DNA from: Eledone cirrhosa
Taxonomy: Eukaryota
Length of the DNA stretch: 64,000 nucleotides
Direction: 5' to 3'
NCBI GenBank assembly: GCA_964016885.1
Contig: OZ024740.1
Coordinates: 23,312,001-23,376,000, forward strand
The notes below the pieces were generated by a model. That model saw only the letters and a list, made by a program, of their open reading frames with translations, made no database searches and was not told the origin of the DNA. The translations under genes were made by a program, and so were the position numbers. Below are positions 26,846 to 55,173 of this stretch, piece after piece (within the stretch, counting starts at the first letter, position 1; every line of letters starts with the position of its first letter).

Positions 26846-26951
26846 ATAGGAACAAGTATGATACTTGTTCCTATTACCCAATCTACTACCCTAAGTATTG
26901 AGTACTCTGGTGCGTATATGGTCCATCTGGTTCCTTACCACAATTCCTTCT
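26846..26951 (+). mobile_element. Minimal fold-back (14-bp arms) plus 3' tail of the GIY-YIG-associated PLE family
   Basis: ATAGGAACAAGTAT G ATACTTGTTCCTAT, then a tail matching 49306-49383 and the reverse complement of 42060-42133. (TA)n on both sides. Confidence 0.8.
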
Positions 26952-29274
26952 TATATATATATATATATATATATATATATATAAAATTTATATATGCATA
27001 CATATATATATATACATATATATACATACACATATGTATATATATAAGTATATATATATGTATACATATATACATACATATATGTATATATATATGTGTA
27101 TACATGTCTACATATATACACACATATAACCATATATATATGTGTATAAATATATATGTATATATATGTAATATATATATATATATATATTACATACATA
27201 TGCATATGTACATACGCGTATGGAGGGGGGGTGAATATGTGTGTTCATGTGCGTGTAAATGCGAGCATATATCTGTTAAATAAACATACATGCATATATA
27301 CACAGATACACACACACACACACACACACACACACACATATATATATGTATATAAACATGCATACGTTCATCAACAGGTAGTCCGACATCTACCTTTACG
27401 TAAGTGTATGTATGGAATTGCGTGAATTGTGTGATAAAACACAGACACGTGTATGGACGTGTGTAGACATAAATAAATATTTCTTTATAAACACACACAT
27501 GAGCATAGGGCGACACACATACACACAGAGACAGAGGTACGCACACATAAACACATACACACTCCTATACATATATATATGTGTGTGTGTGTTCTGCTTA
27601 TATATATATATATATATACATACACACACATATATATATATACATATATATAATATATATATATATGTTTTGTTTATATATATATATATATATAAATATA
27701 TGTTTTGTTTATATTTATATATGTATGTATGTTTTGTTTATATATATATATATGTTTTGTTTTATATATATATATATATATATATATATATATATATATA
27801 TATATATATATATATATATATAGTTAACACTTGGACGGGAACAAAAACAGAGAGGCAGTACAAATAAGAGTTTATTAGGTTCATACATATATATATATAT
27901 ATATATAGATATATATATATATATATATGATTTCCTGCAATATCAAACATTAAACTAATATATTTCTTCACTGTACTCTATTGTTTGAAATTTTTTTGTT
28001 TCCTTTACTCCTCTTACACACACACAACACACACACACACACACACACACACACGCGCGCGCGCGCGCACACACACACACACACACACACACACACACAC
28101 ACACACACACACACACACACGTACATACACACACACAAATATATACATATATATATATAGATACACACACACACACATATATATATATATTTATGTATAT
28201 ATATACATTAGTATATATATATATTTATACATATATATATACATATATATAATTATATATATATATATATTTATATATATATATTATATATATATTATAT
28301 ATATATTTATATATATATATTATATATATATTATATATATATTTATACGTACTTATACTTTAATATGTTGTCTAATTTATAATTATATGTATGACCTCAC
28401 ATGCATACATGAATACACATACAGGATTACATGTATATACGCAACACCGATAACAACAACACTCATATAAACACATTGATGAGAAATTGCTTGACACACA
28501 CGTTTATACACACACACACACACAAACACGCACACACATACACCCACATACTCGCATACACACACACAAACACTCACACACTCACACAAACACACTCACA
28601 CATACACACACTCACATACATACTCACACACATATACACTCTCATACACACACACACAAACACACACTCACACACACTCACATACACGCACAAACACACT
28701 CATACACGCACACACACACAAATACACTCACACACACAAACACAATCACACAAACACACACAAACACATATACACTCACACACATACACACACACTCACA
28801 AACACACTCACACTCACATATACACACACGCTACCGTGGATACCTTTATACACGAATAAAGGCAATACAAATTGAAAGAAAAGCGAGAAGTGGAGCAAAA
28901 TGGAAGAAAAAAGAAAGATCAACAACAACAACAACAACAACGTAGATACTAACACTAACAATAAGACAATAAAAGTTATATGTAACACACGCCCCCCCCC
29001 CCCCCACACACACGTATATACATATATGTACATGTATATATATATATATATATATATATATATATATATATATATATATATATATATATATATTTATATA
29101 TGTATATATATATGTATATATATATATATATATATATATATATATATAAATATATACATATATGTACATGTGTATATATATATATATATATATATACATA
29201 TACATATATGTATATATTTATATATATATATATATATATATATATATATATATATGCACATTCATAACATGACA

Positions 29275-29345
29275 ATGATGATGATGATAATAATAATAAT
29301 AATAATAATAATAATAATAATAATAATAATAATAATAATATAAAT
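29275..29345. repeat. (GAT)n(AAT)n microsatellite
   Basis: Direct reading. Confidence 0.95.
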
Positions 29346-29554
29346 GATATCATCAGCAGCAGCGTCAATAATAACAATAGTAATAACAATAATAATCATG
29401 CATCTACGTGGTGTGTAACATGATTTTTGTTGATGTCGTGTCGCTCTATTTCCGGTTCCGTTGTGGAACGTGACATGTGAACAGAAGCCAAGCTAAGGAA
29501 TCCCAATGCATCATGGTCTACATTTCTTATTTCACACCTTCATAGCTCTTACTC

Positions 29555-30065
29555 TTTCCTCTCTCTCGCTCAGTCTCTCTCTCTCTCTCTCTCTCTCTCT
29601 CTCTCTCTCTCCCTCTCTCTCTCTCTCTCAGTCTCTCTCTCTCTCTCTCTCTCTTTCTTTCTCTCTCTCAGTCTCTCTCTCTCTCTCTTCCTTTCTGTAC
29701 CTCTCTCTCTCTCACACAAGTTCTTTTTCTTTATCTCCTACTCCCGCTCATACACCCTCTCTCCTTTCCCTTTGTTTGCCTGTCTCTCCCTCTCTCTTCT
29801 CTATCTCTGTCTCCCTCTCTCTCTCACTCTGTTTCTCTCTTTCTACCTCCCTACTCCTCTCTCTCTCTCTCTCTCTCCCTCTCTCTCTCTCTCTCTCTCT
29901 CTCTCTCCCTCTCTGTCTCTCTCGAAGCCTCTGTCTCACATCATTACTGTCCCCTACAGTTTCTCAAACTATCTCTCTCTTTCTCTCTCTCCCTCTCTCC
30001 CTCTCTCGAAGCCTCTGTCTCACACCATTACTGTCCTACAGTTTCTCAAACAATCCCTCTCTCAG
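29555..30065. repeat. (CT)n-rich tract with an internal ~55-bp duplication (CTCGAAGCCTCTGTCTCACA...GTTTCTCAAAC)
   Basis: Copies at ~29921 and ~30005. Confidence 0.9.
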
Positions 30066-31369
30066 ATACACACGTAATCTATCTCCGTCTCTCTCAGACC
30101 CTTTTTCTTTGCCTGTCTCACCTTTCTATAATTTTCTCTTCCCAAAAAAGTCAGTCCTTCACACATACAGACACGTCTGCCGTTCTCCAGCTCATATTTC
30201 TCTATTTCTTGTAATGTCGCCACGATTTTTCCCTGCGAGATTTTGCCGCCATTTTAATTTCATATAAAGCCAGTTATTTTTAATTCTATTTCAATAGCAT
30301 CACTCCTGTAATTATTTTGCCCGTTATTTTATATCACAAATAATCAATGTTAAAGATATTATCATTCATTTTTTATTTATGTTGTTTTGATATAATTATG
30401 TCATAATTTCATAAATGTTCTTTTCTTTAGGGAGGCTCAACATAACCCTTAACTTAATAAAAAATATATAATGTATCTCCCCAGTTAATATAAACATATA
30501 TTTATCTAATGAAACTCAACAAACTATCAACACAGTCAACACAAACATAATATGTTCACCCAATCAGCATCAATATATAGCCTCTGTCTACTATAAAAAT
30601 ACTGAGTCTACGCAGATTCATGTCATTACTACATTTACCGTATCACAGTAAACAACATAGATTATAGTTTTACTCAGGCAAGAGACATATAAGTTGTCTC
30701 TCTCTTCTTCTCTCTAGATTGACCTGTTCAAACCAGTGCATCATTAATAGACATCCCTAGATTCACAGCCAGCATCTATCTAATTAACAAATAGGGTGAC
30801 CAAACAATAGAAATCTACCAAATTATATTGAAAAGGGTAAAGGTTATGGTATTATCAAAAACCTCTACAGCGGACATTGTAATAAAGCCGCGGTTTGTGA
30901 CGGCACACACTTGTCTCTAAGTTTTAGCTGAAATGTCGGAGGTTATCACACTTAACTATAGTGCTTGTAAGCCGTATTTGTGTACGATATCTCGTTAAAG
31001 GGCATTACTCTTCTAAATATCTTCTTTTAAATCATTTCAGTTTTCAAAAGGAACTAACTCTGAACACTGTAGTCATCTGCACGGAACCGTTAGATGATCT
31101 TATTAAAGGTTTTCTCTCTCTTTCGATGTTAAAAGCCAAAGATTCTCAACACAACGAGATAAATTCTTCAAGTTAGAGAACGCTGATATATGTCTAGGTG
31201 GAAGGTTAGTTGAGGTCGGAGAAGAAGATAGCGAAAGAGATATAGATAAGGAGATTGGTGATGGAAGAAGGAATGGCGGAAGAAAAGAAGAATATGAATT
31301 AGAAGACTTAAGAAACGGTTGTAATGGAAGCTGCAACACTCGTATTATTGTTAGTATTATTGTTAGTAC

Positions 31370-31560
31370 GGCGGTGGATTGGCAGTATGGGTAGAGGGTC
31401 GGACGCCATGCTTTGACGCAGAGTTACGGCCTTTGCCATTCTGAGTTCAAATCCCGCAGAGGTTAACTTTACCTTTCATCCTTACGGGGGTCGATAAAAT
31501 AAAGTACCAGTAATGTACTGGGTAATTGCTGGCTTTGTGCCAAAAGTAGAAACACTTATT
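31370..31560 (+). mobile_element. Full-length tRNA-derived SINE
   Basis: GGCGGTGGATTGGCAGTATGGGTAGAGGGTCGGACGCCATGCTTTG...GAGTTCAAATCCC...GTCGATAAAATAAAGTACCAG. TTATTGTTAGTA on both flanks. Confidence 0.9.
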
Positions 31561-53730: not shown

Positions 53731-54357
53731 GCGTTTCAGCGTTTGCCTATATATATATATATATATTTTTTTTTTTTTTTTTAAACGCGATAATATTGCT
53801 TTATGCTGAACTCCATATCTTTTGTTGAGTTTTTTTCGGAATGTTTTGACTGTTGTTTCTTGTAAACAGACATTCGTCTCATTCTGACGTCACCAGCCCT
53901 GTCTCCATGTGTGTTTATTAATTCAATGCAACACGAGGTTTGACTAGCCTGCTTTTAAATTCTCCTCTGGCATATTTTAGCTGTGGCTCTTAGTTAACGT
54001 GTTGAGCACTAATGATGAACGGTTCCAACCGTGACTAACCCCACTGAAAAGTTTCGTGAAATAGACTTTTTAAGACTATATAGTGCATTTGTAGATTTTT
54101 CCAAATTGAAGGATAAGTATTTACTCTTAATTTTATTTTGAGTTAAGATTCTATTGGTTTCTTCCCCGGATTACACAAAATCTGTGGATAAAAATTTTGG
54201 TCTTGACTTGTTTTGAATTGGGATTAAATTTTTCCCATATCTTACGTTAAATATTTTTCATCTTGAAGTAATAGTCACTTATATGTCTGAATTACGATTG
54301 GCTTCTTGCTTACATTAATGTCTCTATTTTTCATTTATATATTTATATATATATATA

Positions 54358-54578
54358 TTTCGTTTCTGAATTTGTTTAGCAAGATTCTTTATCTGAAATC
54401 GTGTGTTGAAACCGATATTGTTATACTTTGGGAGGGTCATGTTGCCAATAAGAAACACACGCACCAGTTGCTTTCACTTCAATTTATTATATATTTATAA
54501 ATTTATAAATTTACAAATCTACAAATTTATAAATTTCTGGTTGGTTGGTTGGTTCCACAACCAGATAGTTGTTTATAT
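54358..54578 (-). mobile_element. Truncated copy of the 39184-39778 family, including its tail
   Basis: Near-identical to the reverse complement of ~39570-39776. Confidence 0.85.
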
Positions 54579-54740
54579 ATATATATATATATATATATAT
54601 ATATTAGAAAGTGAGGGTTTTTTTCAAAATGAAAATTAACCGAGGTGTGCTACACGAGTGAAAGTATAAAGAAAAAAGATGAAGTCGAAAATGTAACTAG
54701 AGTCTTATTTAAAAAAAATATATATATATTTATTTGGTTC

Positions 54741-54776
54741 CTTTACCGGTTTCGCAGTTCTTCTGCTTTTCAAAAG
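54741..54776 (-). ncRNA. Minimal U3-A8 hammerhead inside element ~54604-54812
   Basis: Minus strand CTT TTGAAAA GCAG AAGAA CTGC GAA ACCGGT A AAG, same core as 41859-41896. Confidence 0.72.
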
Positions 54777-54825
54777 TAGAGTTGAGATGGAGGGTCTGTG
54801 GTTTTTCTCACATCTCTATATATAT

Positions 54826-55173
54826 ATAATATTAATAAATGGAAACTATCTTTATAAAACCATATTTATTTTATCATACATATTTCAAGGGTACCAACAT
54901 TTTTGGTACGCTCTCATCAGATAACATACAAAAGTTGTTTTACAGATAGTGACATATTCAATACAAGAACTCACAACTTTTGTATTTTATCTGATGAGTG
55001 CGTACCAAAAATGTTGATACCCTTGAAATATGTATGATAAAATAAATATGGTTTTATAAAGATAGTTTCCATTTATTAATATTATTGATACTCCAGAAGA
55101 AACTTGTAGAGTGCTTCTAATCTATTATAATCTAAATTTGTTGAATAACCAACAAATTAAATAACTCATTGCT
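54826..55173. mobile_element. Fold-back (113-bp arms 54826-54938 / 54973-55085) with a hammerhead-like motif per arm, plus ~88-nt tail
   Basis: ATTTTAT CTGATGA GTGCGTACC...CCCTT GAA ATA TG TAT G ATAAAAT at 54984-55043. Position 17 is G, predicted non-cleaving. Confidence 0.8.

Follow-up and report, generated by a model that had tools for sequence, protein, structure and literature searches.

Fold-back palindromes in the genome of Eledone cirrhosa are probably terminal repeats (pLTRs) of Penelope-like elements (PLEs) copied head to head without an ORF, lying in (TA)n and made from two reverse transcriptase (RT) starts that run to a predicted transcription start. We analysed a 64,000-nt stretch, here called the window (assembly GCA_964016885.1, contig OZ024740.1, positions 23,312,001 to 23,376,000, forward strand), together with genomic samples, and found the architecture of head-to-head arms within (TA)n to be real and present genome-wide in four repeat families. 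One arm finishes at the end of a tail and its partner at a fixed site 58–94 nt upstream; either arm type can be the longer and either can bear the tail. Repeat positions are numbered backward from the tail end, the last tail base being −1. Genomic samples were the best 30 of 40 scored matches per search, picked by tail and rare words, so frequencies in them do not describe the whole genome. For family 1 the sample is skewed against short arms, and a genome search with the family 1 tail alone returned 0 candidates, probably because its tail words are too common.

A sequence-only reading of the window had placed tailed palindromes of the four families at six places, and ungapped arm matches confirmed all six (14/14, 55/62, 268/268, 113/130, 55/61 and 58/62), each with its tail followed by (TA)n. 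In family 1, a 14-bp inverted arm at 26846–26859 (minus strand, −79 to −92) faces a direct arm with tail at 26861–26951 (plus strand), both defined by arm match and the latter lacking a hammerhead core. A second inverted arm at 49181–49240 (minus strand, −79 to −138) faces a direct arm at 49245–49383 (plus strand), which runs from −139, the 'wall' described below, to the tail end and appears to be the pLTR of a Hydra-like PLE. The family 2 palindrome joins an inverted arm at 39184–39452 (minus strand, −58 to −326, predicted hammerhead core at 39382) to a direct arm at 39453–39777 (plus strand, −325 to −1, predicted core at 39522), which includes the first ORF codons and the tail and has the same sequence as the pLTR of L121, an ORF-bearing element. 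In family 3, an inverted arm at 54826–54971 (minus strand, −94 to −239, predicted core at 54920) meets a direct arm with tail at 54973–55173 (plus strand, −206 to −1, predicted core at 54991). Family 4 contributes a direct arm with tail at 33085–33214 (minus strand, −130 to −1, predicted core at 33211), paired with an inverted arm at 33217–33281 (plus strand, −131 to −67, end approximate, predicted core at 33221) that ends a few bases beyond the 33277 given earlier, and an inverted arm at 47824–47886 (minus strand, about −71 to −133), paired with a direct arm that starts at −127 and has a shortened tail (47891–47982, plus strand).

The proposed rule of a short arm facing a long, tailed one holds at some loci but is not general: in the 54826 palindrome the tail-less arm extends further 5′ (−239) than the tailed arm (−206), and the shorter arm of long copies frequently carries the tail. 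Among the examples offered for a shared short-arm end, 26846 and 49181 stand, but 38462 is a solo family 1 arm without a partner (38462–38522, minus strand, −79 to −139, flanked by AT runs). The ends at 40931 and 42867 count as a single observation because both sit in one 954-bp inverted duplication (40491–41419, minus strand, containing the 40931 end, and 42381–43326; 679/687 letters identical in the unique part). Position 42867 closes a longer family 1 insertion with two arms (42056–42867), a tail-bearing arm at 42056–42360 (minus strand) and an arm with a GIY-YIG C-terminal fragment at 42381–42867 (plus strand) that ends at −79.

Judged from sequence, all four families are terminal repeats of PLEs; the ORFs joined to the repeats bear out the Penelope-like origin put forward earlier, with the palindromes as ORF-less products. 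The family 2 parent has the EN+ PLE trait of a single ORF with RT and C-terminal GIY-YIG domains, a 1263-aa open frame that is unbroken at L121 and flanked by two repeat copies. A Pfam scan of the whole 1263-aa protein gave no match, but scans of its sub-regions matched RVT_1 (E 2e-4, below the curated cut-off) and GIY-YIG (above the cut-off). In families 1 and 4 the repeat runs on into Hydra-like ORFs, broken and read by motif, with RWR, DKT and CxCX5C; family 1 also has CxxC and CxH near the C-terminus. The family 3 repeat is joined to an endonuclease C-terminal fragment only, which shows CxH only. Passages of PMC8557442 characterize Hydra by RWK-like and DKT motifs, a CxCX5C linker, C-terminal CxxC and CxH, and a (TA)n target, and Neptune by a CX2-5CxxC linker before a GIY-YIG domain with CCHH. 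By motif and without a tree, families 1 and 4 would belong to the Hydra clade, family 3 tentatively so. Family 2, with a CX4CxxC linker, two cysteines in the GIY-YIG core (read by eye) and DKS in place of DKG, appears Neptune-like by its motifs, Nematis being an alternative separable by a tree.

Partial-tandem pLTRs, direct or inverted, were seen in families 1, 2 and 4, and no tandem copy of the family 3 repeat was seen. The tails of families 2 and 4 are in frame with the ORF. Family 2 arms are 0.17% apart, indicating a very young family; divergence in families 1, 3 and 4 is 3.7–5.3%. Within one insertion the 5′ and 3′ pLTRs are mostly identical (L122 shows differences between them, and L292, L294, L296, L305 and L310 slight ones), which is not decisive between a circular and a linear tandem template.

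The tail-less arm ends at a fixed site, not at random, in most loci of all four families, as the sequence-only reading had proposed for the short arm within each family. This end lies at −79 in 20 of the 23 family 1 loci having the arm (30 examined), at −58 in 23/28 terminal loci of family 2, at −67, −74 or −78 in 10, 5 and 3 of 22 family 4 loci (30 examined), and at −83 to −94 in 12/14 family 3 loci (29 examined), where AT-rich sequence leaves the exact base ambiguous. Each repeat offers 4–15 TAT-ending positions, so the site is chosen and is not simply any TAT. ORF-bearing family 2 insertions follow the same plan: with 20 regions fetched, all 9 with both ends clear had the tail at one end and −58 at the other, and in 6 of the 9 the inverted arm, the shorter of the two, bore the tail. 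Loci departing from the end rule were L011 (both arms tailed, with a second, tail-less palindrome elsewhere in the locus), L038 (both arms nearly tailed), L128 (an inversion without overlap) and L109 (an end at −302). The upstream part of L012 was rejected as element sequence, being another repeat family.

The (TA)n targets proposed earlier were also upheld. In families 1 and 2 either end shows TA microhomology, but two main family 4 sites share a single T (1 nt) with the target. A search for empty sites among the fetched loci (94 insertions) gave 6 matches and 0 true empty sites. Hinge letters vary between the printed family 2 loci and no identical hinge recurred; since hinges differ among loci, the palindrome is not mobilized as one piece.

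The earlier reading had missed that hinge position is non-random and piles up at a fixed wall: in ORF-less copies both arms end at one narrow place. The family 2 wall (−312 to −327) accounts for 16 of the 26 tailed arms reaching that far, in a count whose query spanned the last 139 nt only, and the family 3 wall (−241 to −270) for 18/29. In the family 4 tail-only sample, starts lie at or inside −134 in 21/27 loci, at −149 in 1 and beyond −435 in 5. Across arm pairs, both arms were at the wall in 14, both were long in 6 and none were mixed (P = 2.6e-5). Stops at the family 2 wall were found in 16/26 tailed arms versus 0/18 copies of the ORF junction (P = 1.5e-5, Fisher test), and ORF-bearing copies stopped at the wall in 0/30 cases in family 2 and 1/13 (at −137) in family 4. 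In most listed copies extending past the wall, a TATA-like box lies 29–33 nt upstream of an A at −133 (family 4) or −139 (family 1); no TATA box is found at this spacing in families 2 and 3. In families 1 and 4 the wall sequence also resembles a 3′ splice site (a pyrimidine run, then AG), and the family 4 wall coincides with the 5′ edge of the predicted hammerhead helix I. We consider the wall likely to be a predicted transcription start.

Two primings on one RNA would yield these products as follows. Each repeat forms the 3′ terminus of a PLE; those of families 1, 2 and 4 also continue into the ORF of a tandem copy. The protein would cut both strands of an AT-rich target and extend both, as passages of PMC11167929 describe in vitro for another PLE. 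One cut strand would prime at the tail end and the other 58–94 nt upstream, the two ends we observed, with 1–5 nt of pairing to the target end. The RNA would have begun at a pLTR promoter, and both cDNAs would run off its 5′ end after 60–325 nt, hence the wall. Their 3′ ends would then be joined; junctions are flush, share a few letters or carry short fillers, making each hinge new. Long ORF-bearing copies would come from RNAs without an end at the wall, either read-through tandem transcripts or circles. This last step is an added assumption, because ORF-bearing copies lack the pile-up at the wall expected if the usual full-length RNA starts there.

Arms of the same palindrome tend to carry the same variant (family 3, site −197: minor in both arms of 4 pairs, major in both arms of 7, 0 mixed, P = 0.003; family 4, site −115: 6, 9 and 2, P = 0.002), and private variants are common to all copies inside L299, L303 and L307. 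At family 1 site −96, an apparent variant of the long arm only (9 long only, 0 both) was attributed to rare-word sampling. Two reports, each from passages of its source, weigh against the proposal: in D. virilis the promoter is internal and has no TATA box (PMC2377424), counting against the wall as a promoter start, and in vitro the Anolis element starts RT at sites without homology to the DNA that is cut (PMC11167929).

Fold-back self-priming, in which one cDNA folds and copies itself up to an internal TAT, has a precedent in discussion passages of PMC3846280, where it is proposed for head-to-head palindromes of rotifer Penelope elements; the variants common to both arms and many near-symmetric hinges also fit it. 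However, a folded arm can extend 5′ no further than its template, whereas in these copies either arm type may exceed the other, by as much as kilobases: the tail-less arm is the longer in L130 (3719 against 1304 for the tailed arm), L132 (1892/715) and L133 (1321/440), and reaches less far 5′ in L126 and L127. These asymmetric copies exclude fold-back as the general route, and we judge it quite improbable, although it may be the source of some symmetric short copies. Because either arm can be the longer or tailed, the natural products appear to favour two primings on one template, as first proposed, over self-priming. A palindrome mobile in its own right, like a MITE, a Helentron or a rolling-hairpin DNA element, is scarcely credible, as is an artefact of chimeric reads. 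The 39184 arms are perfect over 268 bp and outer ends are fixed, but family 2 hinge letters differ between loci, the repeats belong to RT genes, arms in families 1, 3 and 4 are 3.7–5.3% apart, and short-read contigs from a related organism hold joints that mirror to head-to-head junctions at other positions. Reads of that organism, which has fixed differences, gave no piece across the window locus, and its RAD reads begin near −354, where the DNA was cut, which keeps hinges at the wall out of their reach. For the families taken together both readings are already refuted, locus 39184 itself aside. Many copies with the same interior and hinge, as in a MITE, were not seen, and non-LTR retrozymes, which passages of 10.64898/2026.07.22.740005 define as head-to-tail tandem hammerhead units without an ORF, do not match copies that are head-to-head and cut from ORF-bearing elements.

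Two primings could also have met a wall of another kind. If it marked where the RNA is spliced or processed, or where short non-autonomous master copies have their 5′ terminus, the AG that follows a pyrimidine run in family 1 and in family 4 would be explained, as would the helix I edge at the family 4 wall; passages of PMC4209133 place the end of a D. virilis intron at the 5′ boundary of hammerhead helix I. We think this unlikely: hinges lack common upstream exon letters, family 4 TATA spacing is constant while the spacer letters vary, and the family 2 wall lies ~100 nt upstream of the predicted cleavage site. Stalling of the enzyme on any template by RNA structure or a bound protein would suit families 1 and 4, whose walls directly precede hairpins on the 5′ side, but 18/18 family 2 ORF-junction copies cross the same sequence without a stop, making it very improbable.

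Whether the arms are ribozyme hairpins head to head, as first suggested, would depend on the family. EN+ PLEs are characterized by a type I hammerhead in the pLTR. Our own hammerhead descriptor, used without a shuffled control, predicted cores in 26, 27 and 28 of 30 loci in families 2, 3 and 4, and in 12/30 of the family 4 tail-only sample, but in 0/30 family 1 loci. Rfam was silent: no hammerhead was among the matches listed for the whole window (best 150 of 337), and no ribozyme was found in one family 1 and one family 4 stretch. The best-ranked Rfam matches in the window were microRNA models, below threshold.

How PLEs form tandem and inverted insertions is termed undefined in passages of PMC8557442 and has been partly shown in vitro. 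Earlier publications already describe inverted pLTRs, tails and a pair of RT start sites; the wall appears new, with no description of a fixed hinge at a transcription start in the literature searched. These families may already stand in the supplements of PMC8557442 and PMC13282606. The young family 2 offers many natural products in which both priming sites and the joint are legible to the base. Reading the wall as a transcription start predicts exact RNA 5′ ends and would render an unsolved copying step testable. A more tentative extension, possible but the less expected outcome, has PLEs drawing on templates of two kinds: capped RNA from the promoter, on which priming occurs twice at the first pLTR–ORF junction, would give integrated strong-stop palindromes, and endless hammerhead-made RNA circles would give full-length or multimeric copies. 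If true, strong-stop palindromes would be about half of all insertions in the young family, and partial tandems, pLTRs and the missing 5′ wall would all fit one scheme. Annotation could mistake thousands of such hairpins for MITEs or microRNA precursors; if transcribed, the hairpins would provide double-stranded RNA.

Retroviral strong-stop DNA is cDNA run to the RNA cap, and is an intermediate; its likely equivalent here is integrated. L1 twin priming places two primers on one RNA and yields non-overlapping inversions, whereas the arms here overlap and L128 is the sole L1-like case. In passages of PMC3846280, Adineta vaga Penelope resembles our families in its head-to-head palindromes, an inverted pLTR shorter than the direct one, an optional tail, pLTR and tail encoding the first ORF codons, and TATA and Inr-like motifs in the pLTR, and shares Asn-rich ORF inserts with family 2. 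It differs in tail length (31 bp against 58–94 nt here) and in being mostly ORF-bearing, in few copies and read as self-priming; those passages give no hinge statistics. Hydra and Neptune PLEs, whose motif sets correspond to families 1 and 4 and to family 2, share (TA)n targets, 5′ truncation, partial tandems, an inverted 5′-truncated copy and a tail at either end (text covered of PMC8557442). Their tails are shorter (30–40 bp), hammerheads are called universal in Hydra whereas family 1 arms lack the core, and a fixed hinge is not described in that text. Anolis Poseidon in vitro likewise has both strands cut and extended at an AT-rich target, with two internal RT start sites bounding the tail and a predicted dimer; its starts are not homologous to the cut DNA, whereas most sites here share TA letters with the target, and cDNA joining and a 5′ wall are outside the text covered of PMC11167929. 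Opposite-strand pairs of minimal hammerheads 100–700 bp apart in Schistosoma, taken as truncated PLEs, receive one sentence in the relevant passages of PMC4209133, which leave unmapped the ends, tails and hinges that are mapped here.

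The six head-to-head palindromes listed by the sequence-only reading (starting at window positions 26846 and 49181 for family 1, 39184 for family 2, 54826 for family 3, and 33085 and 47824 for family 4) were all found in the window, each with its tail and flanking (TA)n. Among the internal TAT ends listed with them, however, those at 40931 and 42867 are a single copy doubled by an inverted duplication of 954 bp; the arm at 38462 has no partner. This ~1-kb duplication (40491-43326) is apparently centred on (TA)21 at 41496-41537, carries ~760 bp on its right side without a left counterpart, and is possibly a fold-back repair at the TA run.

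The palindrome architecture is real. In this 3.0-Gb genome, the two arms of family 1, 3 and 4 insertions are 3.7-5.3% apart, almost the divergence seen between arms of separate loci; these are therefore old, unconverted insertions rather than chimeric reads. In short-read contigs from a related organism, joints mirrored on the palindromic reference correspond, as we read them, to head-to-head junctions at other positions. PMC3846280 and PMC8557442 already describe inverted truncated terminal repeats (pLTRs), tails and (TA)n targets, as well as head-to-head palindromes; pairs of hammerheads on opposite strands are described in PMC4209133. Our search of openly accessible main texts found no report of the fixed wall, swappable tail or arm-length argument set out below. 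The palindromes are useful as a natural test of the open mechanism of Penelope-like elements (PLEs).

To tabulate arm ends, we sampled the 30 best loci per family and added a family 4 sample drawn with the tail alone. Of the 277-3650 candidates in each search, 40 were scored, and all counts are values for these samples rather than the genome. Six rows were left out of the end and wall counts (3 duplicates, 1 segmental duplicate and 2 internal repeats). Counting back from the tail end (-1), the tail-less arm ended at a fixed site in each family: -79 in 20/23 family 1 loci with an arm, -58 in 23/28 family 2 loci, -83 to -94 in 12/14 family 3 loci, and -67, -74 or -78 in 18/22 family 4 loci. At all four family 4 loci using -78, the sequence bordering this end is (GA)n, suggesting that pairing to the target end selects the site inside a zone. 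Tail-less palindromes are under-counted because every query included the tail; one is present in the sampled locus L011.

Both arms of ORF-less copies ended within one narrow zone, the wall. It lies at -312 to -327 in family 2 (16/26 tailed arms reaching that far), at -241 to -270 in family 3 (18/29) and near -139 in family 1, where the inverted arm's inner end fell at -133 to -146 in 19/23. The family 4 wall extends up to -134; 21/27 arms in the tail-only sample began at or inside it, 16 of these at -120 to -134. Families 1 and 4 have a TATA-like box 29-33 nt upstream of the wall. Their wall sequence also resembles an initiator. Family 2 has NRF1-like (-354) and YY1-like (-316) motifs near its wall.

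As the sequence-only reading had proposed, the arms probably come from two primings rather than from fold-back. Among the long insertions of family 2, the lengths of the two arms vary independently, and in some the tail-less arm is the longer by kilobases. All nine ORF-bearing family 2 insertions with both ends clearly visible had the tail at one end and -58 at the other, the tail sitting on the shorter arm in six; the remaining 11 regions were left out (end out of range, inverted arm absent, or rearranged). Subfamily and private variants were common to both arms of an insertion, as expected from a single template. Hinges, where the arms join, were flush, shared up to a few letters or held short fillers, and varied from locus to locus, which speaks against the palindrome itself being mobile. 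One hinge (L303, ~1701-1723) contains a T run of >20 letters.

Most likely, the element protein would cut both (TA)n strands, and the cut ends would prime at two sites of one RNA; where that RNA started at the pLTR promoter, the cDNAs would run off its 5' end, and the two would then be joined. According to PMC11167929, both strands are cut and extended, there are two internal starts, and ORF sequence is needed downstream of them; the first pLTR-ORF junction may thus be favoured as a start, giving a short product. Against the simplest version of this reading of the wall, ORF-bearing copies showed no pile-up there: 0/30 in family 2 stopped at the wall and 18 crossed it, and 1/13 in family 4 ended at it. 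This crossing also rejects a sequence-intrinsic stall (P = 1.5 × 10−5). Long copies therefore need another template, and arm pairs (both short in 14, both long in 6, mixed in none) fit two template classes. Circles may serve as templates of the long copies, by analogy with retrozymes; PMC7761336 gives the function of PLE hammerheads as unknown. As a rival explanation, the wall could instead mark a boundary of splicing or processing. Multimers of more than two units occur at L297-298 and L308.

The proposed Penelope origin holds, since the repeats join PLE ORFs; ribozyme hairpins are predicted in three of the families. A hammerhead descriptor matched most family 2-4 copies and no sampled family 1 copy, and Rfam scans listed no hammerhead, either among the best 150 of 337 rows for the window or for one family 1 and one family 4 stretch. 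Family 1 has a conserved hairpin (49248-49290) with GAAA and a GUC triplet, without the CUGANGA core, a candidate half hammerhead or different RNA structure. At L121 (~2500-2550), an arm ends near -222, the predicted hammerhead cleavage site. A fifth head-to-head palindrome (34840-35620; hammerhead-like cores at 35111 on the minus and 35279 on the plus strand; tail to ~35620), absent from the earlier list, has relatives adjoining L014 and L157. A further short repeat family (38690-38870, 41828-42030, 54586-54815 and 55215-55270) ends at (TA)n and has a degenerate hammerhead-like core; such families insert within one another's TA runs. A 39-bp satellite with 15- and 24-bp subunits forms an array of >21 kb (60-21533).

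Family 1 and 4 repeats continue into ORFs carrying RWR, DKT and CxCX5C motifs, which characterize the Hydra clade of PLEs (PMC8557442, section 11). An 11-letter motif common to their tails, ~50 nt from the tail end (for example, 49325-49345 and 33118-33135), is a candidate binding site for a Hydra-like protein. For family 3, the sole linked coding sequence is an upstream fragment of an endonuclease C-terminus. The family 2 repeat belongs to an element whose unit measures 4305 bp and whose 1263-aa frame contains RT and GIY-YIG domains; the beginning of this frame forms the tail, with the TAT coming next. The nearest named homologues of the family 2 protein are from Octopus vulgaris (70-77% identity). 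Upstream of the RT, the family 2 ORF at L121 (2537-6328) has an Asn/Thr/His-rich low-complexity insert, resembling the Asn-rich inserts that Penelope elements carry in rotifers.
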